Assembly (NCBI GenBank): GCA_963666485.2 | Contig: CAXXUO010000009.1 | Span: forward strand, 160,001 to 224,000 | DNA length: 64,000 nt | Direction of reading: 5' to 3' | DNA from: Syntrophorhabdaceae bacterium | GTDB taxonomy: Bacteria; Desulfobacterota; Syntrophorhabdia; Syntrophorhabdales; Syntrophorhabdaceae | Shown: positions 812 through 63,845 of the stretch, piece by piece | Position numbering within the stretch: the first letter of the stretch is position 1 | Layout: every line of letters starts with the position of its first letter | Program-made: the position numbers and the translations under genes | Notes under the pieces: generated by a model | What the model was told of the DNA's origin: nothing | Database searches by the model: none | What the model saw: only the letters and a program-made list of their open reading frames with translations

Positions 812-960
812 GGCAATGGGCGATAGGCTATGGGCAATGGGGAAGCGGCAATGAACCCGAGTCCATCCTATCGCCTATCGCCCATTGCCTATCGCCCATC
901 GCCTATCGCCCATCGCCTATCGCCCATCGCCTATCGCCCATTGCCTATCGCCTATCGCCC
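812..960. repeat. Inverted heptamer-array cassette, family A (GGCGATA/GGCAATG ... CCTATCG/CCCATCG)
   Basis: Left arm 6 in-phase units 812-853 (one degenerate); right arm 13 units 867-957; lies between divergent genes. Confidence 0.95.
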
Positions 961-979
961 AATTCCCTGTATTATTCAT

Positions 980-1008
980 TTGACCCGACCGCTCATTAGT
1001 GATAGTTT
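980..1008 (+). promoter_or_regulatory. sigma70-type promoter for the DUF3617-ilvE unit
   Basis: TTGACC (980-985), 17 nt, TAGTTT (1003-1008) with extended -10 TG. Confidence 0.5.
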
Positions 1009-1050
1009 TTTTTACCGGCAAATCTCAGCGACAACTTTGGAGGAGGATGT

Positions 1051-1497
1051 ATGAAGGCAACTATCTTTGCAGTTTTGGCTATGGTTCTTGCCCTGGCATG
1101 GTGCGGGGGAACGCAGGCCGCGGACCTCAATATGAAAGATGGCCTGTGGGAGATCACGACGAAGACGGAGATAAAAGGGATGCCGGGAAATGTCCCGCCT
1201 ACAAAGATGAAGCAGTGCATGACACAAAAGGATAATGTCCCGCAGCAGCAACCGGGTGAGAAGGGCAAGAACCCGAACTGCAAGATGACGGAGAACAAGG
1301 TCAGCGGCAATACGGTAACATGGACCATGGTCTGCAATGAAAAGGACGGGACTATGGAAAACAAGGGCCAGACGACTTACAAGGGCGACACATTTGACGG
1401 GACGTCGGTCCTGACGATGAAAGATAAAAGCGGGAAGACCCAGCAGATCACGAGCAAAATGAGCGGCAAACGCCTTGGGCCCTGCGACAAGAAATAA
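1051..1497 (+). CDS. Secreted DUF3617-family protein
   Basis: Signal peptide, MKDGLWEITTKTE N-terminal motif, paired Cys, C-terminal GKRLGPC; GGAGGAGG SD. Confidence 0.8.
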   Translation: MKATIFAVLAMVLALAWCGGTQAADLNMKDGLWEITTKTEIKGMPGNVPPTKMKQCMTQKDNVPQQQPGEKGKNPNCKMTENKVSGNTVTWTMVCNEKDGTMENKGQTTYKGDTFDGTSVLTMKDKSGKTQQITSKMSGKRLGPCDKK

Positions 1498-2579
1498 TGC
1501 CCGAATCGAGGACCACTGTGAAGATCAAAACGAAGCTCAGCAAGAAAACCAGGATACACGAGGTCGACTTCGACAACCTTGAATTCGGGGTCGATTTCTC
1601 CGACCATATGTACTATGTCGATTATAGCGACGGCGCGTGGAAAGAGCCCCGCATTGAGCCGTACGGGCCGATGAAGATGTACCCGGCGCTCTCGACGCTG
1701 CATTACGGGCAGGCCGTCTTCGAAGGCCTCAAGGCATTCCTCGGGATCGACGGGAAGATACGCCTGTTCCGTGCCGACAAGAACCATGAACGGTACAACA
1801 TGTCCTGCGAGCGCATGTGCATCCCGACCTTATCCTGGGAGTTGTGGTTCGAGGGCATGAAAAAACTGATAGAAATAGACAAGGAGTGGATACCGAAGAA
1901 GCGCGGGTGTTCCCTGTATATCAGGCCCTTTATATTCGCGACCGATAACTTTCTCGGCGTCAGGGTCTCCTATTCATACCGCTTCATGATCATAACATCG
2001 CCGGTCGGGGCCTACTACAAGGAAGGCTTGAACCCCGTGAAGCTCATTACGTCAGGGGAGTTCGTCCGCGCCGTCAAGGGAGGCCTCGGTGCCGTAAAGA
2101 CGCCCGCCAATTATGCAGCATCCCTGTATCCCGGTGAGGTCGCTAAGAAAAAAGGGTTTACGCAGGTCCTCTGGCTCGACGGGATCGAGAACCGCTGTAT
2201 CGAAGAGGTCGGGACAATGAACATCATGTTCGTCCTCGACGGCACGATCGTCACGCCTCCCCTCGAAGGATCGATCCTGCCGGGCGTTACCCGGAACTCC
2301 GTCATATCGCTCGCCAAGCACTGGGGGATCCCCGTCGAGGAGCGCAAGATCACGATCGACGAGGTCATGGCCGAGGCCAAGACCGGCCGTCTCCAGGAAG
2401 TGTTCGGCACCGGAACGGCAGCGGTTATCTCGCCTGTTGGCTGGATACAGCATGAGAATGACATGGTCACGATCCATAACGGCGAGATAGGGCCGCTATC
2501 ACAGAAACTGTACGATGAGATCACGGGGATGCAGTATGGTGAAAAGGCGGATCCGTTCGGGTGGTGTATAACGTTATAA
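1497..2579 (+). CDS. ilvE: Branched-chain amino acid aminotransferase
   Basis: LHYGQAVFEGLKA, LYIRPF, KTPANYA, EEVGTMN, ILPGVTR, GTGTAAVISP motifs. Confidence 0.95.
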   Translation: MPESRTTVKIKTKLSKKTRIHEVDFDNLEFGVDFSDHMYYVDYSDGAWKEPRIEPYGPMKMYPALSTLHYGQAVFEGLKAFLGIDGKIRLFRADKNHERYNMSCERMCIPTLSWELWFEGMKKLIEIDKEWIPKKRGCSLYIRPFIFATDNFLGVRVSYSYRFMIITSPVGAYYKEGLNPVKLITSGEFVRAVKGGLGAVKTPANYAASLYPGEVAKKKGFTQVLWLDGIENRCIEEVGTMNIMFVLDGTIVTPPLEGSILPGVTRNSVISLAKHWGIPVEERKITIDEVMAEAKTGRLQEVFGTGTAAVISPVGWIQHENDMVTIHNGEIGPLSQKLYDEITGMQYGEKADPFGWCITL

Positions 2580-2581
2580 AG

Positions 2582-2694
2582 ACGGCTAACGGCGTACGGC
2601 GTACGGCTAACGGTAAAAAACAAAAAAAAACCCTTCCGGTAATACTTCGGAAGGGTTTTTCCGTTAGCCGTTAGCCGTTAGCCGTTAGCCGTTC
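2582..2694. repeat. Inverted heptamer-array cassette, family B (ACGGCTA/ACGGCGT ... CCGTTAG)
   Basis: Left arm 2582-2616, right arm (CCGTTAG)4 2661-2688; contains the stop codon of the minus-strand gene. Confidence 0.95.
2626..2660. terminator. Bidirectional intrinsic terminator nested in the cassette spacer
   Basis: AAAAACCCTTCCG-9 nt loop-CGGAAGGGTTTTT between convergent genes. Confidence 0.8.
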
Positions 2695-3167
2695 TTAAAT
2701 TTCTTTTCCATTTCGGCCAGCTTCATGAAGTGCTTGCGCTCTTCTTCTATGATCTTGTCTATTTCGGCGTAGTGCTTCTTATCAATAAATTCTTTGGCCT
2801 CGTGATAATAGAGGATCGAATCGACCTCGCGGCTCATGGCAAAACGTATTGCGCTGAGGGTGTCGAGGTTCCCGGACATGGCTTGGTCTTTTTCCTTCTT
2901 CGTAAACACAACTTTACCGTCGATATGATCTCTCAGGTACGCCGCATACTCACCATGATAGCTTTCAGCGGGCGGGTTCACATCGATTCCCTTCAGCATT
3001 TCGGCAAAGACCGTTTTGTGCCTTGCCTCTTCGTCGGCCATGAGATTGAAGAAATCTCTCACCTCTTTCGTCTCGGCATTGAGTGCGGCCTTGTGATAGA
3101 ACATCTCACCATCTTCCTCGATGCGCATTGCAAATTGAAGAATATCACCGGTGTTAAAAATACTCAT
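2685..3167 (-). CDS. Rubrerythrin/ferritin-like diiron protein
   Basis: AMRIEEDG, ADEEARH, AMSREVDS, EEERKH motifs; ATG 3167 with AAGGAGG SD. Confidence 0.85.
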   Translation of the reverse strand: MSIFNTGDILQFAMRIEEDGEMFYHKAALNAETKEVRDFFNLMADEEARHKTVFAEMLKGIDVNPPAESYHGEYAAYLRDHIDGKVVFTKKEKDQAMSGNLDTLSAIRFAMSREVDSILYYHEAKEFIDKKHYAEIDKIIEEERKHFMKLAEMEKKFKNG

Positions 3168-3290
3168 AACGTCCTCCTTCAAGGGGTTTGCCTATCGTCA
3201 AGCCCGGCCGGCATGACACAAACTACTAAATAATAGTACCGGGCATTACAATTGGCAATGGGTTGTATGACAAGTTTCTTTCGGAACCCG

Positions 3291-11357: not shown

Positions 11358-11987
11358 ATGTATATGTCAATAGAAAGGGTCACCATAGGCTCCGACAACG
11401 ACCTTGAAGGGATGCTCCGTTTTCAGAGCAAAAAGGCGGGCGTGGTCATTTGCCACCCTCATCCCCTCTATGGCGGCAACATGTACAATAATGTCGTAAG
11501 CGCCATTGAGGACGGGTACTCGGCACAGGGTTTCAGCACGCTCATATTCAATTTCCGGGGGGTCGGGAACTCCCGGGGAGAATACGACGAGGGCGAGGGC
11601 GAGGTCACGGACGCAACGGCCGCGTATAAATACCTCGCGAAGCATCTCGACGATGATGCCAGGATCACGCTGGCAGGCTATTCTTTCGGCGCCTGGGTCA
11701 TCTCCCGGTCAGCCCTCGAGATAGAGCGTTTTGACAGTCTTTTTCTCGTTTCCTTCCCCTGCCTGATATACAAGTACGAACATCTCATGAATTTCAACAA
11801 GGAGATCATCATTGTCGGCGGGACATACGATGACATCGCGCCGATGGACGACCTCTACGAGCTTTACCAGCACCTGCCCACAAAAGACAAACATCTCAAG
11901 GTCATAAATACCACCCATTTCTATGCAGGCAAAGAAATAGAACTTATAGATTTCATAAAGGAAACAATACCAAAGATCAGGCGATAG
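11358..11987 (+). CDS. Alpha/beta hydrolase
   Basis: CHPHPLYGGNM, FNFRGVG, AGYSFG nucleophile elbow. Confidence 0.88.
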   Translation: MYMSIERVTIGSDNDLEGMLRFQSKKAGVVICHPHPLYGGNMYNNVVSAIEDGYSAQGFSTLIFNFRGVGNSRGEYDEGEGEVTDATAAYKYLAKHLDDDARITLAGYSFGAWVISRSALEIERFDSLFLVSFPCLIYKYEHLMNFNKEIIIVGGTYDDIAPMDDLYELYQHLPTKDKHLKVINTTHFYAGKEIELIDFIKETIPKIRR

Positions 11988-12094
11988 GCGATGGGCAATA
12001 GGCGATGGGGGCCCCCTCTTCATCTTATGACCCATTACCGATCTGCTCGTATTTTCGCCACCTATCGCCCATCGCCCATCGCCCATCGCCCATC
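11980..12094. repeat. Inverted heptamer-array cassette, family A
   Basis: GGCGATA GGCGATG GGCAATA GGCGATG (11980-12007) ... CCTATCG (CCCATCG)3 CCCATC (12061-12094); first unit supplies the hydrolase stop. Confidence 0.93.
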
Positions 12095-15719: not shown

Positions 15720-15796
15720 GCTATGGGCGATTGGCTATAGGTGATAGGGTGATTTGCGTGTTTTCCTATAGCCCATTGCCCATTGCCTGTCGCCCG
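15719..15796. repeat. Inverted heptamer-array cassette, family A (degenerate)
   Basis: AGCTATG GGCGATT GGCTATA GGTGATA ... CCTATAG CCCATTG CCCATTG CCTGTCG; convergent junction. Confidence 0.88.
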
Positions 15797-17315: not shown

Positions 17316-17412
17316 TAAAAAGGGTTCAAAGTTCAAGGTTCAAGGTAAAAACTCATCCTCGCCTTTTCTTTGAACCTTGAACCTTGAACCTTGAACTTTG
17401 AACCATTTTTTA
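17316..17412. repeat. Inverted heptamer-array cassette, family C (GGTTCAA ... TTGAACC)
   Basis: TAAAAAG (RGTTCAA)3 GGTAAAA ... (TTGAACY)5 ATTTTTTA. Confidence 0.93.
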
Positions 17413-18471: not shown

Positions 18472-20091
18472 ATGACCCCGTACATATTCCTTTTCCTGGC
18501 AGGCCTCGCCCTCTTTCTCCTGGGCATGGTGAAGCTCAGCGAACAGATGCAGCGCGTGTTCAGCTCGCGCATCCGGGAATATATCCGCATTTCGGTCAGG
18601 AAACCTTTTTACGGCCTCATCATGGGGCTTGTCACAACGATATTCTTCCAGAGCTCCTCTGCCGCAACATTGCTGACAATGGGACTTGTCAGCGCGGGGC
18701 TCGTCAGCTTTTACCATTCCCTCGGCATAATCCTCGGCGCCGATATCGGCACGACACTCACCATACAGCTCGTCGTCTGGAAGGTGACGGATATATCTCC
18801 CGTGCTTCTCATCGCCGGCATCGGCCTCTATTTCACGGGGAAAGATCGCCTGAAGACGATCGGCGAAGCGCTGCTTTATTTTGGGACGATCTTCTACGGA
18901 TTGAGCCTCATCGGGCAGGCATCCGCTCCCCTCAAAGACAGCCCGGCCTTTGTGTCCTATTTCCTCTCGGCACATCACCCGATAATAGGATTTTTGATAG
19001 GCCTTGTCTTCACCGCGATCGTCCACGCCTCGGCGATTCCCATCAGCATGCTTGTCATGCTCGGGATACAGGGGCTGATATCGATCGACAATGCCCTGCC
19101 GATCGTTATCGGTGCGAACGTCGGCACCACCGTCACCGCCCTTATGGGCTCGATAGCCAGCGACATAAACGGGAAAAGGACGGCCCTTGCCCACCTCATA
19201 TTCAAATGCTCCGGGGCCCTGGTATCGATGCTCCTTCTTGCGCAGTTCATAGGCCTTCTCAAGGCCGCCTCGCCCAATATCGCGCAGCAGGTCGCATTCG
19301 GCCATTTCATCTTCAACTTCGTCATTGTCGTGATCTTCATCTGGGTCCTGAGACCGTTCTCACAACTCGTTCTCCGGATACTCCCCGGCGAGCAGGAGGT
19401 CATACCCCTGTGGCCGGAATACCTGCAGACCCGGTACCTGGCCGAACCGCGCAAGGCGCTCGTATGCGTCAGGAACGAACTCAAGCGGCAGATCGTCCTG
19501 TCAGAAAAGATGTGCCGTACAGCGCTCGAGCAGTACATCACGTTCAAGACGGTCAAGCAGCGCAACGTCATGTACATGGAACTTGTCATGGACAATCTCC
19601 AGGCCGAGATCACGAAATATCTCTGGGGCATATCCTGCGGGGCATTGTCCGAACCCCTGACCCGGCAGCTCTTTGCGTATTCGTCCTTTGCCTGCGACAT
19701 CGAAAGGATAGGCGACCGGTCGGTCAATCTTGCCGAACTGGCGGAACAGAAAACGCGCAGGAAGGGACATTTTACCCCCGCCGCCAATGAGGAGCTCCGT
19801 ACGATAGGGACCCTGGTGCTCGAGAACCTGAATGATGCAATAAAGCTCATAGATGAGAAAAATATCGATGTCATCCGCGTTATCATGGAGCGCGAACGCA
19901 GGATAGACGTTAAAATAAAAAATGCGATAGGGGCCCACCTTGAAAGGTTTTACAAGAAAATGTGCGTTGCCGAGGCGGGCCCTATATATGTCGACGTGCT
20001 CGTCAATCTCGAGAGGATATCCGACCACTGCAGGCTGATCGCCCAGCTCACAAACGAATTGGAAGAAAATTTGCTCGACGATAAGCAATAG
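18472..20091 (+). CDS. Na/Pi cotransporter family protein with C-terminal PhoU domains
   Basis: FQSSSAAT, ILGADIGTT, IGANVGTT; PhoU DIERIGD and NLERISDH. Confidence 0.9.
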   Translation: MTPYIFLFLAGLALFLLGMVKLSEQMQRVFSSRIREYIRISVRKPFYGLIMGLVTTIFFQSSSAATLLTMGLVSAGLVSFYHSLGIILGADIGTTLTIQLVVWKVTDISPVLLIAGIGLYFTGKDRLKTIGEALLYFGTIFYGLSLIGQASAPLKDSPAFVSYFLSAHHPIIGFLIGLVFTAIVHASAIPISMLVMLGIQGLISIDNALPIVIGANVGTTVTALMGSIASDINGKRTALAHLIFKCSGALVSMLLLAQFIGLLKAASPNIAQQVAFGHFIFNFVIVVIFIWVLRPFSQLVLRILPGEQEVIPLWPEYLQTRYLAEPRKALVCVRNELKRQIVLSEKMCRTALEQYITFKTVKQRNVMYMELVMDNLQAEITKYLWGISCGALSEPLTRQLFAYSSFACDIERIGDRSVNLAELAEQKTRRKGHFTPAANEELRTIGTLVLENLNDAIKLIDEKNIDVIRVIMERERRIDVKIKNAIGAHLERFYKKMCVAEAGPIYVDVLVNLERISDHCRLIAQLTNELEENLLDDKQ

Positions 20092-20164
20092 GCTACGGGC
20101 GATAGGCGATGAGATCGCTAAAAAAGAAGTGTTCCTATAGCCCATTGCCTATCGCCTATCGCCC
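20077..20164. repeat. Inverted heptamer-array cassette, family A
   Basis: GACGATA AGCAATA GGCTACG GGCGATA GGCGATG ... CCTATAG CCCATTG CCTATCG CCTATCG; overlaps the stop of the Na/Pi gene. Confidence 0.9.
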
Positions 20165-21496: not shown

Positions 21497-22100
21497 ATTC
21501 GTACTCAAGGACCCGTTCTACAAAAAAGCGAAAGATGAAGGCTACCGCGCCCGCAGTGTCTACAAGCTCAAAGATATAGATGCGAAATACCATCTCGTCA
21601 GGAAGGGCGACATCGTCCTTGACCTCGGCTGTTCACCCGGAAGCTTCCTCCAGGTCCTGTCGGACATGGTGGGGGAAAAGGGAACCGTGATCGGCATCGA
21701 CATTCTCCCCACCCCCGCCCTGCCCCGGAAGAACGTCAAGACATTGCAGGCGGATATACGGGAAGTTGACATAGAAAAATTACTCAATGAAAATGGCTTA
21801 GCTCAGGCAGATGTCGTCACCTGTGACATAGCACCCAACCTGTCCGGCATCAGGGAGGTCGATGACGCGCGGATCGAAGAGCTTTTCCGCTGTGTTCTCG
21901 ATCTTGTTGCAAAGGCCCTGAAACCCGGGGGCAACTTCATCGTCAAATCATTTTCGACAACGGTTCAAAAAGACATCACCGAAGCCCTGAAGCGGGGTTT
22001 CGGCAAGGTCACCCCGTACAAACCCCCCGCATCGCGTGCAGTCAGTTCGGAAATTTTCTTCGTTTGTATGGGAAAAAAGGCGATAGGCGATAGGCGATAG
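21489..22100 (+). CDS. rlmE: 23S rRNA Um2552 methyltransferase (FtsJ/RlmE)
   Basis: DPFYKKAK-GYRARSVYKL, VLDLGCSPGS, DIAPNLSG, KPPASRAVSSEIF. Confidence 0.92.
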   Translation: MARFVLKDPFYKKAKDEGYRARSVYKLKDIDAKYHLVRKGDIVLDLGCSPGSFLQVLSDMVGEKGTVIGIDILPTPALPRKNVKTLQADIREVDIEKLLNENGLAQADVVTCDIAPNLSGIREVDDARIEELFRCVLDLVAKALKPGGNFIVKSFSTTVQKDITEALKRGFGKVTPYKPPASRAVSSEIFFVCMGKKAIGDRR

Positions 22101-22178
22101 GCGATAGGAAAACTACCACGCTTTATACCCATATCGGGAACCGGTTCGCCGTTAGCCGTTCGCCGTTAGCCGTTCGCC
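22079..22178. repeat. Hybrid heptamer cassette: family A left arm, family B right arm
   Basis: (GGCGATA)4 22079-22106 ... CGGTTCG CCGTTAG CCGTTCG CCGTTAG CCGTTCG 22142-22176. Confidence 0.92.
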
Positions 22179-27004: not shown

Positions 27005-27232
27005 AAATGGTTCAAGGTTCAAGGTTCAAAGTAAAAGACTAAATACCTTAGAAGATTGGGGATGGTTCAAGGTTCAAGGTTCAAGGTTCAAAGTAAAAGA
27101 CTAAATACCTTAGAAGATTGGGGATGGTTCAAGGTTCAAGGTTCAAGGTTCAAAGTAAAAGACTAAATAGCTTAGAAGCTTGGGGCGTTTCTAACATTGA
27201 ACCTTGAACTTTGAACTTTGAACCATTTTTTA
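27002..27232. repeat. Family C heptamer cassette with the left arm plus spacer tandemly triplicated
   Basis: Units 27007-27061 (55 bp), 27062-27123 and 27124-27185 (62 bp each); right arm (TTGAACY)4 27197-27224; bounded by the two TAA stops. Confidence 0.95.
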
Positions 27233-34998: not shown

Positions 34999-35101
34999 AA
35001 ACCGGTTCAAGGTTCAAAGAAAAAGACCCCCCCTCTTAACCATTTTCAGGATGAAAGGTTTTTACTTTGAACCTTGAACTTTGAACCTTGAACCATTTTT
35101 A
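34996..35101. repeat. Inverted heptamer-array cassette, family C
   Basis: TAAAAACC (GGTTCAA)2 AGAAAAA ... TTTTTACT (TTGAACY)4 ATTTTTA; both ends coincide with stop codons. Confidence 0.92.
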
Positions 35102-39504: not shown

Positions 39505-39525
39505 ACGTCTTGCGTCTTGCGTCTT
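39505..39525 (-). repeat. Solo heptamer arm, family F (AAGACGY)3
   Basis: ACGTCTT GCGTCTT GCGTCTT on the plus strand, 8 nt past the permease stop. Confidence 0.7.
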
Positions 39526-39533: not shown

Positions 39534-40508
39534 CTACCCTATCCTTATCCTCGGGTCGGCCACCGCATACGAAACGTCCGCTATCAGGTTGCCGATCAGG
39601 GTGAGGAGCGCGCCTATGACGAGGATGCCCATGATGGTAGGGTAATCCCTTGCCATGACGCTGAAATAGAAAAGCTGTCCCATGCCGGGTATCGAAAAGA
39701 TGCTTTCAAATATGACGCTCCCGCCGATAAGTCCCGGCACGGAGAGGCCAAGGATCGTTATGACGGGCAGAAGGGCATTTCTCATTGCATGCCTGCGGAT
39801 GACTATCCTTTCAGGAAGGCCTTTTGCATAAGCGGTCGTTATGTATTCCTGCCGCAAGACCTCGAGGAGGCTGCTTTTCATATAGCGCGATATGCCCGCA
39901 AGGCTCCCGACGGCGGAGATCGCAACGGGAAGGACAAGGTGCCTCGCTATGTCCCCGATCTTTTCCAGGATATTCATGTCCTGGAAATCGTAGGATTTTA
40001 TGCCCGACACGGGAAGTATTTCGAGATAGACCCCGAAAAAGATCATCGCGAGCAGGGCCACCCAGAAGGTCGGGGCGGCATACCCGGCAAAGACGAAGGA
40101 CGTCAGCAGCTTGTCCATGATGGAATCTTTGTACCGGGCACAATAAACACCTATAGGGATGCCGAAAATAAAGATAAGCCCCATCGACAGCAGGTTGATG
40201 AGTATCGTTATCGGGAGCCTCTCCTTGATCTTGTCGATGACAGGCCTGCGGTCGGTGGCGAACGATGTCCCGAAATCGAACCTGACTATCCTTTTGAGCC
40301 AGGTCCAGTACTGGACATGAAGCGGCTTGTCGAGGCCGTAAAATGCCCGTATCCTCTCACGGGCCTCCTTGGTTATCTTGGGGTTCATCTCGGCTTCCAA
40401 CATGCCGGGCTCACCCGGCACGAGGTGGATAACCGCAAAGGAAACAAGCGTGATCCCGAATATCATCGGGATCATGAAAAATAAACGTTTAGCGAGATAC
40501 TGCAGCAT
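39534..40508 (-). CDS. Peptide/nickel ABC transporter permease (OppB/DppB type)
   Basis: [43 protein letters not shown]. Confidence 0.92.
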
Positions 40509-42368: not shown

Positions 42369-43313
42369 ATGTATATTAATGCAATATCCCATTACCTGCC
42401 TTCCAGGAGAATTCCCAACCAATATTACACTGAACTCAAGGGCCTCACCGATGAATGGATCTTTCGGAGGACGGGTATACGGCAGCGCACACGGGCCGCC
42501 GACGATGAAAATACCCACACCATGGCGATCGAGGCTATGCTGCCGATCGTTGACAGGCTGCCGTACGATCTGAAAGACGTGGACCTTATCGTGGGAGCGA
42601 CCTATACGCCGTTCGATATGGTAGGGACCCTCGCACACGCCGTGCAGGGCTACTTCGACATCCACTCGGCGGCAGCGGTGACGGTGACAAGTGCCTGTTC
42701 GTCATTTATCAATGCCGTTGAGATAGTCGAGGGTTATTTCGCGACAGGCAAGGCAAAACGCGCCCTGGTCATTGCCTCCGAAGATAATTACATGTATACG
42801 AACGAGGATTGTGACGAGTCGGCCCACCTCTGGGGGGACGGCGCCGGATGCGTGTTCATATCTGCCGAAAAATACTCGGCGGACGATATCAGGGTCCTCG
42901 ATGTTCACACTGCCGGCCTCGGGCACATCGGCAAGGGTGTGGGCGGTGTCTACTTAAGGCCTTCGAACGGCGGGCTCATCATGCCGTACGGGCGTGATGT
43001 TTTTGTCAATGCCTGCAAATTTATGGAGACCGAGGCAAAGGATATTGTCGAAAAGAATAACTATGTCATGGGGGACGTCAATTACCTTGTTCCCCACCAG
43101 GCAAATTCCCGCATAATGGACCACGTCGCCAAGGTGCTTGGAGTCGATGCGTCCAGAGTGATCTCAAACATCGAGGAAACAGGAAATACGGGTTGTGCAA
43201 GCACCCTGATATGCCTTTCCCAGAACTGGCAGAGATTCGTCGAAAACGACCTGATCCTTGTCACCGTCTTCGGCGGCGGGTACTCGAGCGGGGCGATGCT
43301 GCTTAAAAAATAG
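42369..43313 (+). CDS. 3-oxoacyl-ACP synthase III (FabH-like)
   Basis: RTGIRQR, SACSSF (Cys), WGDGAG, VPHQAN (His), GNTG (Asn), FGGGYS. Confidence 0.9.
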   Translation: MYINAISHYLPSRRIPNQYYTELKGLTDEWIFRRTGIRQRTRAADDENTHTMAIEAMLPIVDRLPYDLKDVDLIVGATYTPFDMVGTLAHAVQGYFDIHSAAAVTVTSACSSFINAVEIVEGYFATGKAKRALVIASEDNYMYTNEDCDESAHLWGDGAGCVFISAEKYSADDIRVLDVHTAGLGHIGKGVGGVYLRPSNGGLIMPYGRDVFVNACKFMETEAKDIVEKNNYVMGDVNYLVPHQANSRIMDHVAKVLGVDASRVISNIEETGNTGCASTLICLSQNWQRFVENDLILVTVFGGGYSSGAMLLKK

Positions 43314-43347
43314 TTCCACGTTCCAGGTTCCAGGTTCCACGTTAAAA
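43313..43347 (+). repeat. Solo heptamer arm, family D (GTTCCAC/GTTCCAG)4
   Basis: Begins at the G of the TAG stop; ends GTTAAAA. Confidence 0.9.
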
Positions 43348-43402: not shown

Positions 43403-43963
43403 ATGGAATTACTGAAAGCGATAAAAGAGAGACGGAGTGTCAGGCATTACAGGAGCGATAGTGTGCCCGACGAGATATTGCTCGAGATCCTCGAGGCGGC
43501 GCGGTGTGCTCCATCATGGGCCAATACGCAGGTGTGCCGCTTTATCGTGGTAAAGGAAGCCGGGGTAAAAGAGGCGCTGCAGGAATGCCTTGGTCCCCAG
43601 AACCCCGCACGGGCCGCCATGGTCGAGGCGCCTATTGTTATCTGCGTCGCGGCGCAGAGGAATGTTTCCGGCTGCCGCGGCGGGACCCCCACGACGAACA
43701 AGGGCGACTGGTTCATGTTCGACGCGGGAATAGCCCTCGAACATATTGCGCTCGCCGCCTGTAATTTCGGGCTCGGCACGGTCCACGTGGGAAGTTTCGA
43801 TGCGGCAAAAGCCGAACAGGCCCTTGCGATCCCGGAAGGTTACAGCATCACGGAAATGATGCCTCTCGGGTATTTCGACGAGACCCCCCGCGAGACCCCA
43901 AGAAAACCGCTGACTGAGATCGTTTACCTCGATCGCTTCGGCGAACCGTATCTTAAAAGATAG
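43403..43963 (+). CDS. Nitroreductase family protein
   Basis: RRSVRHY, AARCAPSWANTQ, GLGTVHVG, RKPL; start trimmed to ATG 43403. Confidence 0.9.
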   Translation: MELLKAIKERRSVRHYRSDSVPDEILLEILEAARCAPSWANTQVCRFIVVKEAGVKEALQECLGPQNPARAAMVEAPIVICVAAQRNVSGCRGGTPTTNKGDWFMFDAGIALEHIALAACNFGLGTVHVGSFDAAKAEQALAIPEGYSITEMMPLGYFDETPRETPRKPLTEIVYLDRFGEPYLKR

Positions 43964-44112
43964 TTCCACGTTCCACGGTTCCACGTTCCACGCTAAAAAC
44001 CCTTATTATATAACCCGCAATATTCAACCCAATAACAGTTCGCCCGTTCACCGTTCACATCTTAGTTCTTTAAGCGTGGAACGTGGAACCGTGGAACGTG
44101 GAACCGGTTTTT
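43963..44112. repeat. Inverted heptamer-array cassette, family D, perfect 32-bp arms
   Basis: 43963-43994 is the exact reverse complement of 44073-44104. Confidence 0.95.
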
Positions 44113-45183: not shown

Positions 45184-45474
45184 CTATAAAACACCCAGAC
45201 CGACACCAACCATTCCCGGACCGGAATCATATGCCTCTGTCATGGCGCGGGAATCATCTTCGATCTCGTTTTCGATACGCGTCGTCACTTTGCGTATCTC
45301 GGCTATTATTCCAAGACCCGTCTTAAAGGGGTCTTTTGCTGAACCGATCTGTGCTATTGCCATGTCTTCGACATTCTTGAGCGCCGCCAAAAAAGCCTTG
45401 TCCATCCTGGGGGCCGCAGCCTTCTTTTTCGCAGGTGCAGCTTTTTTCTTTGCCTTCGGTTTCACTGCTGCCAT
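45184..45474 (-). CDS. Hypothetical protein with Lys/Ala/Pro-rich N-terminus
   Basis: AAGGAGGTG SD; TTGACG-16-TATAAT upstream (45579-45552). Confidence 0.7.
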   Translation of the reverse strand: MAAVKPKAKKKAAPAKKKAAAPRMDKAFLAALKNVEDMAIAQIGSAKDPFKTGLGIIAEIRKVTTRIENEIEDDSRAMTEAYDSGPGMVGVGLGVL

Positions 45475-45597
45475 ACAACACCTCCTTTAAGATGTGTCAG
45501 CATCGCATAGGGGAAAATCCCTGACTACCCGGAAGAATTATCCATACCACAATTATATTGGCAAACGGGGATTCGTCAAGGGAAGAAAAGCCATAAA

Positions 45598-45727
45598 TAG
45601 TAAGGAGTGAAGAGCAAAGAATAGGGAGTTAAAGACAGAACTTCAAATATGAAGATAATATTTTGCGAAAATTGCCGGCCATGTTTGCTTTTTCTCCCCG
45701 CTCCTCACTCCTCACTATTCACTATTC
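45598..45727. repeat. Degenerate inverted heptamer cassette, family G (GAGTGAR ... CCTCACT/ATTCACT)
   Basis: TAGTAAG GAGTGAA GAGCAAA GAATAGG GAGTTAA ... CCCCGCT CCTCACT CCTCACT ATTCACT; between divergent promoters. Confidence 0.65.
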
Positions 45728-51121: not shown

Positions 51122-51239
51122 AAAACGGTTCAAGGTTCAAGGTTCAATGCTAAAAGAGTATCCCCCTATAAAAGAAAAACTGCCATTCCGAGAATGGCAG
51201 TCCCATTGAACTTTGAACCTTGAACCTTGAACCGTTTTT
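51121..51239. repeat. Inverted heptamer-array cassette, family C, perfect 27-bp terminal IR
   Basis: AAAAAC(GGTTCAA)3 51121-51147 vs (TTGAACC)3GTTTTT 51213-51239; internal hairpin ACTGCCATTC/GAATGGCAGT 51179-51201. Confidence 0.95.
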
Positions 51240-51585: not shown

Positions 51586-51778
51586 CATGGGTTTGCCTCG
51601 CCGAACTATTCAAAATTGCAGATATTTCGTAATTCCGGCCCTGTATCTTTCATCCAAAACAGGCAAGATTTGTCGACATTGGTTTGGTCGAACGACAATT
51701 GCGTCGACGACGATTGACAAGGTGCTTAAAAACATACTAAGGTAAAACAACTGCGACAACATCAGGAGGAGGCGTATC

Positions 51779-53104
51779 GTGTCCATGAACATACGGGAAC
51801 CGGTAATAACCGTCGGGATCGCTGATATGCAGGCTGGCGTGACGGGACGGCTCAATGGAAATTTCCTCATCGGGGGGACCGGCCTTTTGTCCGGCCCGTT
51901 CCGCGCGTCAGTGGACAAAGAAGGCGTCCTTCTTTTCGACGAAGGCGACCGCGTTGTCGCTCATGCCCCTTCTGTGCGCCTCGTGGCCAACGAAGGCTCG
52001 ACGTTCCGCATATCGGACGTGACGATCGGGATCCGCTTCCACTGGGAACGCAAAGAAGACCAGGTGTTCGAGGGAAACCTCGTCCTGACCGCACGCGACG
52101 CCGGCCATATGGCAATCATCAATGAAATATCACTCGAGAATTACCTCGTGAGCGTCATATCGTCTGAAATGAGCGGGACGGCGCCGGGTGAATTTCTCAA
52201 GGCCCATTCCATTATCTCACGCAGCTGGCTCCTCGCGGCTCTTGACCGGAAGGTGGCAGGAAAAACACCGGACGGGCGGCCCCCGACCGATGAGCTCATA
52301 CGCTGGTACAACCGGGAGGACCACGACATTTTCGATGTCTGCGCCGATGACCACTGCCAGCGGTACCAGGGCATTACAAAGATAATTTCGGACATGGCGG
52401 CGCATGCGGTGAGCGAGACGCGCGGGCACGTCATCGCCTATGGCGGCAAGGTCTGCGATGCCCGGTATTTCAAGGCGTGCGGCGGTATTACCGAGAATTA
52501 CGAAACGGCCTGGGAAGATACCCCGATACCCTACCTCGTCAGCATCAGCGACTCACCGAACGCCCTGCCGGCGGTTGCCTCCGAGGGCAAGGCCGCACAA
52601 TGGATCCAAAGTTCGCCGGATGTGTACTGCAACACACAGGATGAGGAGCTGCTCGCAGAGATGCTGCCTGGCTATGACCGGGAAACGGCGCATTTTTTTC
52701 GCTGGAAGGTCGAGTATACGCGAAGCCAGCTTGAAGAGATAATCAGGCAGAAATCGGGGATCGACTTCGGTACGCTCCATGATCTTGCACCGCTCGAGCG
52801 GGGACCGTCCGGAAGGATAAAGCGCCTGAAGATAAGCGGCTCGAAACAGAGCATCGTCATCGGGAAGGAACTCGAGATCCGCAGATGGCTCTCGCCCACC
52901 CATCTTTACAGCAGCGCTTTCATCGTGTCGGTTGACTCGGGGGCGGATGGTAGTCCGGAACGCTTCACATTTAACGGCGCGGGATGGGGACACGGTGTCG
53001 GCCTGTGCCAGATAGGGGCAGCCGTCATGGCAAAGAAAGGGTTCACGGCCCGGGAGATCCTGGCCCATTATTTTACCGGCGCCGAGATCACGAAGATCTA
53101 TTAA
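51779..53104 (+). CDS. SpoIID/LytB-domain protein
   Basis: LENYLVSVISSEM, LKAHSIISRSW, DVCADDHCQRYQG, GAGWGHGVGLCQIGA, ILAHYF. Confidence 0.9.
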   Translation: MSMNIREPVITVGIADMQAGVTGRLNGNFLIGGTGLLSGPFRASVDKEGVLLFDEGDRVVAHAPSVRLVANEGSTFRISDVTIGIRFHWERKEDQVFEGNLVLTARDAGHMAIINEISLENYLVSVISSEMSGTAPGEFLKAHSIISRSWLLAALDRKVAGKTPDGRPPTDELIRWYNREDHDIFDVCADDHCQRYQGITKIISDMAAHAVSETRGHVIAYGGKVCDARYFKACGGITENYETAWEDTPIPYLVSISDSPNALPAVASEGKAAQWIQSSPDVYCNTQDEELLAEMLPGYDRETAHFFRWKVEYTRSQLEEIIRQKSGIDFGTLHDLAPLERGPSGRIKRLKISGSKQSIVIGKELEIRRWLSPTHLYSSAFIVSVDSGADGSPERFTFNGAGWGHGVGLCQIGAAVMAKKGFTAREILAHYFTGAEITKIY

Positions 53105-56407: not shown

Positions 56408-57369
56408 AAGATGCCTCGCATGATCGTGTGCTGGCACACTTCACGGGTGCCGGTGATGGGCCCTCCCCCCTCGGCCGGATATGCCGGCAGCTTGTCGACG
56501 AACAGCAGGGCTCCTGGCCCGAGCTCAGGTCGGCCTGCGAATCGCTCGGTGACGCACGGCAGCGCGATATCGCATGTTCCGGTTTCTCGGTCCGGCTTAT
56601 GTATAACCCGGGAAGGTCCATCAACACCCTTGCCGCGGTCACGCCGGAAAAGATCAGTGAAAGGCCCTGTTTTCTCTGTGCGGCGAATTTGCCCGCGGAA
56701 CAAAAAGCGGTCCTGTACAGGGACAGTTTTCACATCCTGGCGAACCCGAGACCTGTCGTTCCCTACCACCTTACCGTCGCGGACACCGCGCACCGGCCCC
56801 AGTCCCTGTATGAAAGCATCGACCATTTTCTCCTCCTGACACACGATATCGCCCCGGGCTTTACGACGCTCTATAACGGCCCCCGGTGCGGGGCGTCCGC
56901 CCCGGACCACCTGCATTTCCAGGCGGTACCGTCAGGCAGCATACCGGTCGAAAAGGAGATCGCCGCCCGGCAGAAATTTTCCGTCGTGGACAGGGATGAA
57001 CACGTCATCGTTTCATCGGGCCGTGGACTCGGCAGGGAAATAATGCTCATAGAAGGCGCCGATGCCCGTGATGTTTCCCATGCTTTCCGGGAACTGATCG
57101 ATACATACCGTCTGCGAACGGACGATGGCGACGAACCCATGATCAATGTCATGGGCCGCTGCATACATGACAGCTTCTGCCTCGCCGTTTTTCCGCGCCG
57201 CGCCCACCGTCCTGCCGCTTTCTTCCGGCAGGACGATCAAAGGATAATGGTGAGCCCCGCGGTCATGGAGATGGGAGGCATGATCGTTACCCCTTCCGAA
57301 ACGGATTTTTACCGCCTCACTGCAGACATGATCGAATCGATTTACAGGGAAGTATCCTTGATGCCGTAA
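56404..57369 (+). CDS. DUF4922-like protein, GalT/Ap4A-phosphorylase-type HxHxQ nucleotidyltransferase fold
   Basis: RPCFLC, ILANPRP, YNGPRCGASAPDHLHFQA, FPRRAHRP, VSPAVMEMGG. Confidence 0.75.
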   Translation: MKDASHDRVLAHFTGAGDGPSPLGRICRQLVDEQQGSWPELRSACESLGDARQRDIACSGFSVRLMYNPGRSINTLAAVTPEKISERPCFLCAANLPAEQKAVLYRDSFHILANPRPVVPYHLTVADTAHRPQSLYESIDHFLLLTHDIAPGFTTLYNGPRCGASAPDHLHFQAVPSGSIPVEKEIAARQKFSVVDRDEHVIVSSGRGLGREIMLIEGADARDVSHAFRELIDTYRLRTDDGDEPMINVMGRCIHDSFCLAVFPRRAHRPAAFFRQDDQRIMVSPAVMEMGGMIVTPSETDFYRLTADMIESIYREVSLMP

Positions 57370-57510
57370 GGCGTGAGCGCGTAAGGCGTGAGCGCGTAAG
57401 GCGTGAGCGCGTAAGGCGTAAGGCGTTAAAGCGAGACATCGGCCCCCCCATAAAACTAAAGATGATTTTCAGATAATTGCGCCTCACGCCCTACGCCTTA
57501 CGCCTTACGG
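57364..57510. repeat. Inverted heptamer-array cassette, family E (GCGTAAG/GCGTGAG ... CTTACGC)
   Basis: Left arm 57364-57429 built of 7+8 = 15-bp units; right arm 57483-57510; first unit contains the TAA stop. Confidence 0.95.
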
Positions 57511-59810: not shown

Positions 59811-59813
59811 AGA

Positions 59814-59957
59814 CCGTAAGGCGTGAGAGCGTAAGGCGTAAGGCGTTATAAAAATAGACAATCATGGAGCGATGGGGGCAGGGATCTTTTCCCTACCCCC
59901 TATTTTCATTATATTCTTTGAGGTTTTTTTGCGTGGAACGTGGAACGTGAAACCGGT
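59814..59957. repeat. Hybrid heptamer cassette: family E left arm, family D right arm
   Basis: CCGTAAG GCGTGAGA GCGTAAG GCGTAAG GCGTTAT ... GTGGAAC GTGGAAC GTGAAAC CGGT; GC hairpin 59874-59900 inside. Confidence 0.9.
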
Positions 59958-59964: not shown

Positions 59965-60198
59965 TTAAAGGCCTCCACACTCCCGCTGGTACGCCGTCGT
60001 CGTCCAGCATGAGCGGAAGAAGGGGCATTCCCGGCACAGGTGAAGCTTTTTCTTTGACCTCAGGTACTGCTTCCCGGAATCCGAGCTCACCTTGTCGTGG
60101 GCCATCTCATCGATACAGGGAGGCGTTCGCGACTTGCAGCCGTGCTTGTTTTCGCAGCCTATACAGTAACCATGCTCCGGTTTTGCGGGGTTCGTCAT
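59965..60198 (-). CDS. Small Cys-rich protein
   Basis: CIGC-x5-C-x6-C and CREC-x5-C; ATGA overlap with the upstream gene. Confidence 0.6.
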   Translation of the reverse strand: MTNPAKPEHGYCIGCENKHGCKSRTPPCIDEMAHDKVSSDSGKQYLRSKKKLHLCRECPFFRSCWTTTAYQRECGGL

Positions 60199-60869: not shown

Positions 60870-60918
60870 CTTCTGGCTTATTATAATACCGGGACTGAAA
60901 ATATAACAGGCGGCCCCA

Positions 60919-61563
60919 TCAGTCCTCGCTTCCGCCGGTTAGGACCGTGTCGGCAAGCTCGTTTATGTCCTCGTCCCCGACAGGGAAATGCTCCGCGAGC
61001 AAATCCCCTGTTTCGCCGATGACCTTCACCAGCGCATCAGCGGCCTGGCCCGCGCGGATACCTGCTGAAATGCTCCTGGCAAACCCGTTTAATTTCGCCT
61101 GTGTCATCTTGTCATGTATGCCCCGGTCGGCGAGGACCCATACTTTTCTTTCAAGCAGGGAGATGAAGAACAATACGCCCGTCGATCCCTTCGTACGGTA
61201 GAGCCCTTTTTCGTAAAAGGCCCGCATGGCCCTGTCACGCACCGCCTGCTGCCTGCGCCGGTGCCCGGTCAAATGGAACGTTGCGGCAGGGACCTTCTTC
61301 ATGACAGGCCATGAGGCGGCAAAGAAGGCCAGCGTCAGCGGGATGTACCACCACAATGATTCGTGAAGGAAAAAGATCGTTATGAGGAAGGCAATGACGT
61401 TCCCCAGGGTTATCGCGCCGAGGACCTCGGCCTCACGGTAACGCGTGCTTGCATCGACCACCATGACGGCTATCTCACCGATCGTCTTCGATTCGGCCGC
61501 ATGTGTCGCCTCCCTGATCCGTTCCTTTTCAGCATGGGTGAAAAAATGCAGGGCCTTGCTCAT
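60919..61563 (-). CDS. TPM-domain membrane protein (short type)
   Basis: AAESKTIGEIAV, TGVLFFISLLERKV-VLADRGI, DINELAD. Confidence 0.85.
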   Translation of the reverse strand: MSKALHFFTHAEKERIREATHAAESKTIGEIAVMVVDASTRYREAEVLGAITLGNVIAFLITIFFLHESLWWYIPLTLAFFAASWPVMKKVPAATFHLTGHRRRQQAVRDRAMRAFYEKGLYRTKGSTGVLFFISLLERKVWVLADRGIHDKMTQAKLNGFARSISAGIRAGQAADALVKVIGETGDLLAEHFPVGDEDINELADTVLTGGSED

Positions 61564-62486
61564 TACCAATCCCCCGATGCGCCGCCGCCGCCGAAGTCTC
61601 CGCCGCCGCCGCCGAACGAATCACCGCCGCCAAAATCACCGCCGCCGCCATACCCTCCTCCCCAGAACCCACCGGGGCCAACACCTCCGCCGCCGCCCCT
61701 GCCGCCAAAGAGAAACGGCAGGAAAATACCGAGGACCAGGCCGAGAACGCCGAGAAGGACCACCGTTATAAGGGAAAGGCCGAGTATGTACGCGATGGCG
61801 CCAAACCCGACAAGGCCCGCCCCGCCTCCGAGGACCTTGGAGATACGGCCGAGCATCAACAGGAATACGGCACCGAATATAAGAAAAGGAAGGGCCGATG
61901 AAAGGCCCTTCCCCTTAAGTGTTCCCGGTTTGGGTTTGTCCGGTTTGAACTCGCCGCGAGTCGCATCGATCATCGCGCGAATTCCCGCTGAGAACCCGGC
62001 ATCGAAATCACCTCGCTTGAACTGGGGGTTTATCACGAGCTGGACGATGCGGCCCGACACGAGATCGGTAAGCTTGCCCTCGAGGCCCCTGCCAACCTCG
62101 ATACGTGTCTTGCGGTCCTTCTTTGAAACAATGAGGATCGCACCGTTGTCCTTTCCCTTCTGCCCTATCCTCCAGGCTTCGGCTACCCGAATCGAGAAGT
62201 CCTCGAGCGAGTCCCCCTCGAGCGAATTGATCGTGAGGATCACGATCTGCGTTGAATCCGTCTTTTCGAAATTCCTCAATTCGGCTTCAAGACGCGTCCT
62301 GGCCTCAGGGGATATCATGTTCGCGTAATCATTCACGCGCCCCTTGAGGGGCGGTACGTCAAGGGCATAGCCCGGGAATGCCGCCAGCAGGGACGCGGCC
62401 AGTACCATAAAGACCGCAGCGCAGTATGCAAGACACCGTACCCTGCCCGGATATGACCCGCTTTTTATGTTATGCAGAAGACCCAT
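61563..62486 (-). CDS. TPM-domain (YgcG/DUF477) protein with Gly-rich tail
   Basis: RVNDYA, IGQKGKDNG, RIEVGRGLEG, FGGGGASGDW. Confidence 0.9.
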   Translation of the reverse strand: MGLLHNIKSGSYPGRVRCLAYCAAVFMVLAASLLAAFPGYALDVPPLKGRVNDYANMISPEARTRLEAELRNFEKTDSTQIVILTINSLEGDSLEDFSIRVAEAWRIGQKGKDNGAILIVSKKDRKTRIEVGRGLEGKLTDLVSGRIVQLVINPQFKRGDFDAGFSAGIRAMIDATRGEFKPDKPKPGTLKGKGLSSALPFLIFGAVFLLMLGRISKVLGGGAGLVGFGAIAYILGLSLITVVLLGVLGLVLGIFLPFLFGGRGGGGGVGPGGFWGGGYGGGGDFGGGDSFGGGGGDFGGGGASGDW

Positions 62487-62506
62487 GGGTAAATTCAGGT
62501 CCTTAC

Positions 62507-63091
62507 CTAAAATTTCACCTTCGGCGCTTTTTCGGCACCGGCTTCGGCCTTGAACGGCTCTCTCTGCGGGAGCTTCGTCAGGAACATGTTCGTCAGGTTG
62601 TTGGGAAATACGCGTATCGTGGTATTGAAGTCCTGGACGGCCTTGTTATAGCGTACCCGCGCGACATTTATCCGGTTCTCCGTTCCTTCCAGCTGGTTCT
62701 GGAGGTCCCTGAAATTCTGGTTCGCCTTGAGGTCCGGGTAACGCTCGGCAACGAGCAGGAGCCGGGACAACGCCCCGGACATGTTCGCCTGGGCCTGCTG
62801 GAACTGCGCCATGGCCTGCGGGTTGTTCAGGGTATCTTTCGACACCTGGACCGAGCCCACCTTCGCGCGGGCCTCTGTAACCGCCACGAACGTCTCGTTC
62901 TCGTGCTTCGCATAGGCCTTCACGGTCTCGACCAGGTTCGGCACGAGGTCGTTGCGCCTCTGGTATGAGGCCTCGACATCACCCCATGCCGCTTTGACGG
63001 CTTCATCTTTCTGCTGGATCGTGTTGTACCCGCATCCGGAAAGCATAAGTACCGCCAGGGCAATGACCCCATACAAAAACGATCGTTTCAT
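62507..63091 (-). CDS. lemA: LemA family lipoprotein
   Basis: LSGCGYN, YQRRNDLVPNLV, ERYPDLKANQNF, LEGTENRI; start trimmed to ATG 63091. Confidence 0.93.
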   Translation of the reverse strand: MKRSFLYGVIALAVLMLSGCGYNTIQQKDEAVKAAWGDVEASYQRRNDLVPNLVETVKAYAKHENETFVAVTEARAKVGSVQVSKDTLNNPQAMAQFQQAQANMSGALSRLLLVAERYPDLKANQNFRDLQNQLEGTENRINVARVRYNKAVQDFNTTIRVFPNNLTNMFLTKLPQREPFKAEAGAEKAPKVKF

Positions 63092-63258
63092 TATCTCCTC
63101 CCTCTCCATTTCATTTCGCAGTTATCGAGCGAAAGCGCGCTCCTGAAAAAGATCACGGATGTAATAGTATCATTTTGTCCAAAAAAAATATAGATTTTCC
63201 ACCCTTGACGCCGCCGAAAGATGCGTGATAAAAACTTCAAAAAAACGGAGGGTACAAG

Positions 63259-63660
63259 GTGGATGACGAGATAAAGAAAAGAACGCAGGAAACCGCGAAA
63301 AAACTCTGGACAGGCGGCATAAAGCTCGACCCCCCGTACCTGACATGGAAAGAGTTCGACAAGGACCTTGCCAACGACCTTTCCATGTTCATAACCGGAA
63401 ACCTCTATTCCCGTACGGTATTGACCCTTCCGGAACGCCAGATGGCCGCCTGTGCGATGCTCGCCGCCCTCGGCGCCTCCGATGAGCTCCGGCTTCACGT
63501 CAACGCCGCACTTAATGTTGGCTGTGACCCGAAGAAGCTCGCCGAGGTATTTTTCCAGCTTGCACCGTATGGCGGCATGCCCCTCGTGAACAAGGCGCTC
63601 GAAGTGTTTAAGGAAGTGTTGAAGGGGCGGGGGGAGTGGGAAAAGTATAAAAACGGCTAA
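63259..63660 (+). CDS. Carboxymuconolactone decarboxylase family protein
   Basis: GNLYSRTVL--ERQM, ELRLHVNAALNVG, QLAPYGGMP; GGAGG SD. Confidence 0.85.
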   Translation: MDDEIKKRTQETAKKLWTGGIKLDPPYLTWKEFDKDLANDLSMFITGNLYSRTVLTLPERQMAACAMLAALGASDELRLHVNAALNVGCDPKKLAEVFFQLAPYGGMPLVNKALEVFKEVLKGRGEWEKYKNG

Positions 63661-63845
63661 CGGCTAACGGCTAACGGCTAACGGCTAACGGCTAACGGCT
63701 AACGGCTAACGGCTAACGGCTAACGGCTAACGGCTAACGGCTAACGAAGAATACCGAAGACAAAAGAAAAGGCAAGCGCAAAGCTTGCCTTTTCATATTT
63801 TCAGTTTTTTCCGTTAGCCGTTAGCCGTACGCCGTTCGCCGTTCT
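63653..63845. repeat. Inverted heptamer-array cassette, family B, with 13 perfect ACGGCTA copies
   Basis: (ACGGCTA)13 63653-63743; right arm CCGTTAG CCGTTAG CCGTACG CCGTTCG CCGTTCT 63811-63845. Confidence 0.96.
63766..63794. terminator. Bidirectional intrinsic terminator nested in the cassette spacer
   Basis: GAAAAGGCAAGC-5 nt loop-GCTTGCCTTTTC. Confidence 0.8.

Follow-up and report, generated by a model that had tools for sequence, protein, structure and literature searches.

Among the described bacterial elements, the intervening sequence (IVS) of 23S rRNA is one of the closest to the repeats considered here. In the accessible part of one account (PMC4990558), it has a 28-bp stem that is cut by RNase III and an S23p gene in its loop; gene-less forms exist, S23p is described as a homopentamer for a Xanthomonas relative, and a mobile element has been proposed. 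Here, we examined a stretch of 64,000 nucleotides (the window; contig CAXXUO010000009.1, positions 160,001 to 224,000 of the forward strand) from a Syntrophorhabdaceae bacterium (assembly GCA_963666485.2), in which 17 loci carry tandem arrays of 7-bp units, typically as a cassette made of one array (left arm), a spacer and the mirrored array (right arm). Compared with the IVSs of Coxiella burnetii and Leptospira that bear an open reading frame (ORF), two gene-containing ('filled') cassettes share the gene-in-loop layout, and the long stem is comparable (27–33 bp here and ∼28 bp in Coxiella). In contrast with these IVSs, none of the 17 window loci holds an S23p/PF05635 gene, which only two cassettes elsewhere in the genome do; the arms are tandem heptamers bracketed by A/T runs; and ∼200 copies, nearly all of them gene-less, lie past stop codons and between protein genes. 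The single 23S rRNA gene of the genome contained no insert with a period-7 array. On the basis of current results, the loci are best read as part of a large, rule-bound population of gene-less IVS-like cassettes, whose RNA function and mode of spread we infer. What is new here is the gene-less hairpin cassette as a variant of element kinds that are already known.

Several other repeat classes invite comparison. The STRR (short tandemly repeated repetitive) sequences of heterocystous cyanobacteria are tandem 7-bp intergenic units that can form hairpins between genes such as hupS–hupL; their function is given as unknown, and a role in transcript stability is suggested, in the accessible part of the source (PMC2670836). 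Both STRR sequences and the cassettes consist of tandem, intergenic and hairpin-forming 7-bp units, whereas the phylum and the units differ, and the strict mirrored layout, fixed arm length, stop-codon position and link to PF05635 are features of the cassettes described here. STRR heptamers are also said to have been found by Vioque in 1997 inside the gene for RNase P RNA. A literature search, with supplements and most subscription journals outside its scope, returned no paper linking PF05635 genes to flanking heptamer arrays and none describing gene-less cassettes as a system; nor did the literature search find a paper linking STRR repeats to PF05635.

Repetitive extragenic palindromic (REP) sequences and their composite forms, bacterial interspersed mosaic elements (BIMEs) and REP doublets forming hairpins (REPINs), resemble the cassettes in their numbers (hundreds), their extragenic sites at gene 3′ ends, their inverted, hairpin-forming structure, their lineage-specific sequence and the low-copy gene that the repeats flank. 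Unlike REPINs with their REP-associated tyrosine transposase (RAYT), the flanked gene here encodes a four-helix-bundle protein without known catalytic role, and each arm repeats one 7-nt unit in tandem, where REP/BIME has one imperfect palindrome. The TAACTGA repeats of marine Beggiatoaceae are likewise abundant intergenic heptamer arrays, with two to six copies and an orientation bias relative to genes; as far as the accessible part of the source goes (PMC4679880), they comprise a single unit, mostly in direct repeats toward start codons, with one inverted case among 170 sets, whereas the cassettes use many units, mirrored pairs and sites past stop codons. With bidirectional intrinsic terminators, the cassettes share an A-run, stem and T-run readable from both strands and an occurrence at convergent gene ends. 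However, with a stem of 27–40 bp and a loop of 20–150 nt that often contains a normal terminator, they greatly exceed the textbook form (G+C-rich 5–14-bp stem, small loop), so that they do not classify as intrinsic terminators, and termination by them is putative; of the 175 cassettes, 91 have a T4 run past the right arm, which gives about half of them a U-run. The conserved internal sequence of MITEs (miniature inverted-repeat transposable elements) was seen in one five-copy subfamily only, which has a common module. Unlike in a diversity-generating retroelement (DGR), no reverse transcriptase gene (PF00078) lies beside the Avd-like gene. Profile searches of the genome gave no match to reverse transcriptase and none to RAYT (PF01797, Y1 HUH transposase). 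Since neither gene was found, both REPIN/RAYT membership and a DGR-like route were ruled out in it.

Census and anatomy of the cassettes

The genome examined comprises 3.77 Mb in 10 contigs and is 99% complete. Gene ends were taken genome-wide from a crude ad hoc ORF caller (3182 genes), and the Pfam check of gene calls was confined to the window. Tandem Repeats Finder reported 772 period-7 rows in the genome, versus 121 for period 6 and 124 for period 8. Exact arrays of at least three copies numbered 251 for period 7, 5 for period 6, 6 for period 8 and 0 for periods 9–12, and the shuffled genome had no exact period-7 array of this size. After merging, 650 of the 754 arrays were intergenic or at gene edges. 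The special status that the initial annotation had given to period 7 holds on the genome scale: neighbouring periods are far rarer, and an inverted polarity bias is present. The arrays recur in contigs from four sequencing runs of one sample and from one run of a second study; short-read contigs break within cassette arms. The unit families of the genome are connected by one-base steps, and their regional clustering is weak (51 versus 37 expected).

The genome has ∼200 cassettes, counted as 202 forward–reverse (F–R) pairs with at most 1500 nt between the arms, 175 of which are separated by no more than 200 nt. Their architecture is constant: an A-run, ∼4.3 units, an A-run and a mostly unique spacer are followed by the mirror image. 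Among adjacent same-family pairs no more than 250 nt apart, 89 were inverted in one orientation, none in the opposite one, and 11 were direct. For typed pairs within 150 nt, the count was 162 F-then-R versus 1 R-then-F, a figure that is partly circular because the F and R labels came from array position and polarity data. The spacer has a median length of 62 nt. The consensus units of the two arms were identical in 88 of 175 cassettes, compared with 22 ± 4 after shuffling, and differed by at most one mismatch in 139 of 175 (44 after shuffling). Copy number peaks sharply at 4.0–4.5 units (227 of 617 typed arrays). At the other end of the range, 27 typed arrays in the genome have at least 10 copies; the tract at G000:C4:299440-299712 contains ∼39 tandem GGTTCAA units, 1.5 kb from a contig end. 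A-runs bracket each arm on the forward strand: of the 175 cassettes, 89 and 91 have an A4 run outside the arms at a distance of up to 12 nt, compared with 221 of 2790 array-free stop-codon flanks, and 113 and 95 have one immediately inside. Folding of all 175 cassettes gave a median z of −8.7, with 93% below −3; stems were 27–33 bp, A:U extension included, in five folded examples, one of which was folded on both strands.

The position of the arrays relative to genes is equally regular. More than half of the intergenic arrays (356 of 650) lie no more than 30 nt from a predicted stop codon, at a modal distance of 5–7 nt, and the arms contain the end of several ORFs. On the sense strand, the form near stops is almost always the forward one (77 to 0 for GGTTCAA and 47 to 0 for GTTCCAC). 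Full cassettes occupy 75 of 431 convergent, 87 of 2315 tandem and 18 of 426 divergent junctions, and tandem junctions carry 70 forward-only arms versus 28 reverse-only arms.

The content of the loop was analyzed in 165 spacers of at least 20 nt, taken from the 175 cassettes with spacers of up to 200 nt. In 31 of them lies another hairpin repeat, from an unrelated family with GTCATCCCGG-type ends that occurs genome-wide (for example, C2:586347-586514 and C4:248329-248486). Several spacers contain an ordinary small terminator hairpin. In a subfamily of five cassettes, which includes 63652-63844 of the window, a very long GGCTAAC arm is followed by a common ∼50-nt terminator module, and the neighbouring genes are unrelated. 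For this one subfamily, copying is evident. A further 27 cassettes have spacers longer than 200 nt, two of which enclose a PF05635/TIGR02436 gene. A DUF763 gene (354 aa; G000:C2:500147-501356) lies between forward and reverse arrays of unlike families and might be carried as cargo or just happen to stand between two half cassettes.

Association with PF05635 genes

The initial annotation had linked such arrays in other genomes to genes for four-helix-bundle proteins (23S rRNA IVS protein, PF05635/TIGR02436). This link holds in the present genome, in its congeners and across phyla. Just as the initial annotation stated, the window has no such gene; the only two PF05635 genes of the genome are on other contigs, and both lie inside inverted heptamer cassettes. 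The arms of these two filled cassettes are GGTTCAA and GGCTAAC, the most common and third most common intergenic families. A PF05635 match was present in all 20 congener genomes, 18 of them above the Pfam cut-off, and by eye ∼22 of the 26 intact PF05635 genes in these genomes are flanked by mirrored short-period arrays. Many of the congener genes have a −10-like motif ∼30 nt upstream of the start. The units of the congener filled cassettes vary by locus, and each major unit family of the present genome has a like-armed filled cassette somewhere in the genus. The congeners also provide a decay series: both arms are intact around a frameshifted gene, one arm remains beside a 5′-truncated gene, and a gene broken at several points has none.

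Reference genomes were scanned with a six-sequence alignment of one PF05635 subfamily, so that the resulting sample of 80 loci from many phyla covers this subfamily only. Matched mirrored arrays were found on both sides of 33 of the 75 usable loci, versus 1 of 277 shifted control windows, and a further 35 of the 75 had an array on at least one side. The median copy number was 4.3. Period-7 arrays concentrate near the gene: 89 were found in 46.8 kb close to a PF05635 gene versus 77 in 310 kb at greater distance. The distance between arm units rises with the distance between proteins (Mantel r 0.32, a value reached by 0 of 1000 permutations in a kind of test that relatedness inflates), as joint movement or co-evolution of arms and gene would predict. 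Of the distant arrays, 13 of 97 had the unit of a nearby PF05635 cassette, a modest excess over 5.0 ± 2.4.

It should be noted that some PF05635 cassettes have units of another length. Among the congeners, most units are 7 nt long, whereas four genomes have 9-nt units and one has an 8-nt unit; loci L013, L020, L021 and L034 have 9-nt units, L018 has an 8-nt unit, and L096, L102 and L103 also belong to this 8- or 9-nt group. Such cassettes occur in congeners and in records of Atribacteria, Planctomycetota and Thermotogae. Thus, period 7 is typical of the class, not defining. PF05635 genes have also been described as wedged within cas operons (PMC3936711).

Window loci and their orthologous junctions

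The 17 heptamer-array loci listed by the initial annotation each gave at least one period-7 row in Tandem Repeats Finder, all seven unit families were recovered, and the proposal of one common architecture was supported. Direct reading of the sequence found mirrored arms on both sides at 14 of the 17 loci (Table 1); the exceptions are two single arms (39506-39525 and 43313-43343) and one degenerate pair (45598-45727). The junction counts were about right on the Pfam-checked map: arrays occupy seven of eight supported convergent junctions, and the claimed nine of ten was reached when two unsupported small ORFs were included. The array-free convergent junction is that of the overlapping polA/BrkB-family pair.

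Table 1 Repeat loci of the window, with positions counted from its first nucleotide
Positions	Strand	Element	Junction	Arms and other details
812..959		Cassette		Left arm of GGCAATG/GGCGATA type (812-842); after the spacer, right arm of 13 units (867-959)
2582..2693		Cassette	Convergent	Left arm 2582-2613 (GGCTAAC/GGCGTAC), right arm 2661-2693
11979..12094		Cassette	Tandem	Left arm 11979-12009 (GGCGATA), right arm 12064-12094
15720..15795		Cassette	Convergent	Degenerate GGCTATG/GGTGATA-type arms
17323..17404		Cassette	Tandem	GGTTCAA arms 17323-17346 and 17370-17404; thiamine-binding-protein gene, then FAA hydrolase gene
20077..20163		Cassette	Tandem	GGCGATA-type arms; left arm overlaps ORF end
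22078..22178		Cassette	Convergent	Unlike arms: left GGCGATA, right GCCGTTA/GCCGTTC; both overlap ORF ends
27009..27224		Cassette		62-bp unit (left arm and 34-nt spacer) in three tandem copies, 27009-27185; right arm 27193-27224
35002..35094		Cassette		GGTTCAA arms 35002-35019 and 35064-35094
39506..39525	-	Single arm		Three units; forward form on minus strand, directly past stop of permease gene 39534-40508
43313..43343	+	Single forward arm	Tandem	GTTCCAC/GTTCCAG; fills the FabH-nitroreductase junction
43963..44106		Cassette		GTTCCAC arms as two exact 30-nt mirror copies; unique 82-nt spacer
45598..45727		Degenerate cassette	Divergent	GGAGTGA type
51127..51233		Cassette		GGTTCAA arms around small terminator hairpin (51176-51204)
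57365..57509		Cassette		GGCGTAA/GGCGTGA arms 57365-57426 and 57480-57509
59811..59953		Cassette		Unlike arms: left GGCGTAA type, right GTGGAAC; G5/C5 hairpin between
63652..63844		Cassette		13.6-unit GGCTAAC left arm, ∼50-nt terminator module, right arm 63811-63844

Predicted folds are strong at the individual loci: −77.8 kcal/mol (z −11) for the cassette at 2582, which encloses a small terminator hairpin of its own at ∼2620-2660; z −8.5 at 17323; z −11.6 at 43963; and z −12.1 and −10.7 on the two strands at 51127. The three copies of the 62-bp unit at 27009-27185 are 98% identical to each other.

The junctions of the window were compared with those of five congeners, whose genes are 72–82% identical. 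As judged by eye, arrays were present in ∼48 of 66 junction-by-relative comparisons, mostly with a different unit family. At a period-7 score of at least 11, a threshold fixed beforehand, arrays were detected at 11 of 47 relative junctions where the present genome has arrays, versus 0 of 80 where it has none; a lower threshold, picked after the scores were known, gave 32 of 47 versus 3 of 63. Junction 11987 has a hairpin cassette in all six species, and the arms, read by eye, differ between species and are complementary within each. At junction 2579, a terminator is kept in four species (G002, G007 and G014 among them) beside differing left arms. Similarly, at 51127..51233 different arms surround a terminator in G002, G007 and G011, relatives have CGTAAGG-type or CGTTCTG arms at the junction of 17323..17404, the junction of 35002..35094 has arrays of different families in G002, G003, G007 and G011, and the single-arm site at 43313..43343 has different letters in a related strain. 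The left-arm family of 59811..59953 is preserved in G002 and G003. Presence itself also varies: the junction of 812..959 has arrays in G003, G007 and G011 and none in G002 and G014, and the cassette at 20077..20163 is shared only with G011, being missing from G002, G003, G007 and G014.

The junction that holds the cassette at 43963-44106 is only 23–61 bp long and array-free in five of five relatives. The cassette is therefore a gain in the present lineage; its spacer has no second copy in the genome. GGTTCAA triples number 122 in this genome, versus 3, 1 and 0 among 30 relatives, and in G011 and G007 many near-identical copies of GGC-type arrays occur. Comparison of the sequences thus indicates that sites persist, that units turn over and that at least one family has recently expanded in this lineage. 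At locus L172 (G007:C322), the orthologue of junction 27004, the left arm consists of ∼15 tandem CGTGAAT units where the present genome has GGTTCAA.

Three further stretches of the window also stood out. An interval of ∼95 nt at 45474-45570, which covers the start of the minus-strand gene 45184-45474 and sequence upstream of it, hardly varies among six species with gene identities of only 72–81%; a conserved leader, a small RNA and an operator are candidate roles for it. Upstream of a SpoIID-domain gene, 51640-51779 has repeated boxes that contain GTCGAC and a stretch resembling a promoter, and five species conserve this region. At 61580-61649, TPM-domain genes contain or adjoin CGC-rich repeats of 3 and 21 nt.

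Possible origins and implications

We place about even confidence in the following reading: the 17 loci are gene-less members of a hairpin-cassette family, they likely act as hairpins at transcript ends, and they likely multiply by copying. The arms would pair as RNA from either strand, giving a 27–40-bp stem and then a U-run, and the hairpin would insulate transcripts or terminate them; like the 28-bp stem of the 23S rRNA IVS, this stem may, by analogy, be cut by RNase III. New arms would come by copying that favours the first bases past stop codons and displaces older arms, and such displacement would explain why arrays are kept at orthologous junctions while the unit varies by species. Where mirror arms surround an older terminator, they could have been made by template switching at the hairpin. 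The arrays may be read or maintained by the PF05635 protein, whose solved relatives form a homopentameric ring (five chains each in PDB entries 2gsc and 2rld).

A number of observations weigh against this reading. The stem and loop sizes of the cassettes are unlike those of textbook intrinsic terminators, many cassettes enclose an ordinary terminator of their own, and termination, processing and even transcription of the arms are putative. Single arms exist, which does not suit a simple mobile element, and at junction 2579 three relatives (G002, G007 and G014) have the left arm only, a state that fits arm-by-arm gain better than insertion of a whole cassette. Since 122 of the 165 spacers have no other copy in the genome, most cassettes are not plain copies of a master element. 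Comparison of 43963-44106 with five empty sites showed no visible target-site duplication, with A/T-rich flanks that blur the borders. The two arms of one cassette resemble each other no more than unpaired arms from one family do (median longest match 19 versus 18, p 0.20). Array density in 12 congeners, which ranged from 3 to 52 period-7 rows per 100 kb (62–100 kb sampled in most and 14–40 kb in three), did not clearly track how many intact PF05635 genes a genome has: there were 3 arrays per 100 kb in G012, with three such genes, and 10 per 100 kb in G003, with none. Finally, the suggestion in the initial annotation that these loci are empty derivatives of filled cassettes remains plausible in view of the decay series in congeners, but no relic of a PF05635 gene or of the −10-like motif was found in the ∼200 gene-less cassettes of this genome. 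Its wider proposal, that one mechanism writes 7-mers, found no support: related cassettes elsewhere have 8- and 9-nt units, one-base steps connect the families, and no reverse transcriptase or Y1 gene was found.

Two other explanations are, in our view, unlikely. The arrays might chiefly be single-stranded protein-binding sites in 3′ untranslated regions, with the hairpin between arms secondary: a reader, the PF05635 pentamer or another heptamer-binding protein, seated on about four to five units past the stop would control decay, read-through or translation. Such a role would suit the forward form found on the sense strand at 356 gene ends, the single forward arms, which occur at 70 tandem junctions and also where a conserved terminator follows the stop codon, the copy number fixed near 4.3 both here and across phyla, the variation of arm units between species at conserved sites and their covariation with the PF05635 protein; the accessible part of a Nostoc preprint also reports that heptamer repeats affect expression, with an unknown partner (10.1101/2022.06.06.494920). 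However, the arms pair far above chance (88 of 175 versus 22 expected), and full cassettes are as common at tandem as at convergent junctions (87 and 75), so that a second gene's tail does not by itself account for the reverse arm. Array density also does not follow PF05635 gene count in congeners, and protein binding is itself putative. Alternatively, and in our view no less doubtfully, the hairpins could be terminators or mRNA stabilizers of the host that arise in place, slippage making the arrays and template switching at a terminator mirroring them, without any dedicated protein and with PF05635 genes merely lodging in the loops as a safe harbour. Many cassettes do contain native terminators that are conserved between species while the arms change, the hairpin of junction 11987 is kept in six species with differing arm sequences, spacers are mostly unique, 31 of 165 contain another repeat family, and no transposase or reverse transcriptase candidate was found. 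Yet independent slippage does not explain why a handful of units recurs at hundreds of loci, or the recent burst of GGTTCAA specific to this genome. Nor do a polarity of 89 to 0, a copy-number mode too narrow for a slippage distribution, arms that travel with the gene across phyla and five cassettes with a common spacer module favour an origin in place.

Mobilization by a conventional transposase encoded elsewhere (RAYT/Y1 HUH or that of an insertion sequence), which would make the cassettes REPIN/BIME-like or MITE-like, is much less probable still. In their number (hundreds), inverted form, extragenic position at gene ends and lineage-specific sequence, the cassettes do recall REPINs, but this 99%-complete genome has no PF01797 match, with 0 of 5 candidates passing; each arm is a tandem array and not a REP palindrome, no target duplication was seen, and 122 of the 165 cassettes have no conserved internal sequence. 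Chance microsatellites or an assembly artefact, to which the breaking of short-read contigs within arms might point, have a negligible probability in our estimate, considering the 251 exact arrays versus 0 in the shuffled genome, the strict layout, the arrays at orthologous junctions in five other assemblies and their presence in runs of two studies. A bolder version of the copying hypothesis, which we put forward tentatively and consider improbable as a whole, would take the arms as the address of a transposase-free copying system, in which the PF05635 pentamer would read about four to five tandem units and, together with host replication or repair, would install or renew mirrored arms at gene ends, and to which IVSs, STRR sequences and the general heptamer excess would all belong. 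Each lineage might then rewrite the hairpins of the same junctions with its current unit, which would amount to concerted evolution of transcript-end structures.

No role is known for the very large protein family PF05635/TIGR02436, and heptamer repeats (STRR, TAACTGA and the general period-7 excess) and rRNA intervening sequences have each been unexplained for decades. The present genome shows the gene-less form at an unusual scale and with clean rules of arm length, polarity, A/T brackets, stop-codon position and persistent sites, which turn a vague repeat class into testable hypotheses on RNase III processing, termination, protein binding and mobilization. If the cassettes do move without a transposase or reverse transcriptase, they would represent a new route for the spread of DNA. 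If they are transcript-end insulators, they would be relevant to operon annotation and might provide compact orthogonal processing or terminator modules. Should gene-less cassettes both fold and spread by copying as we propose, several unexplained bacterial repeats would be tied to one kind of element.

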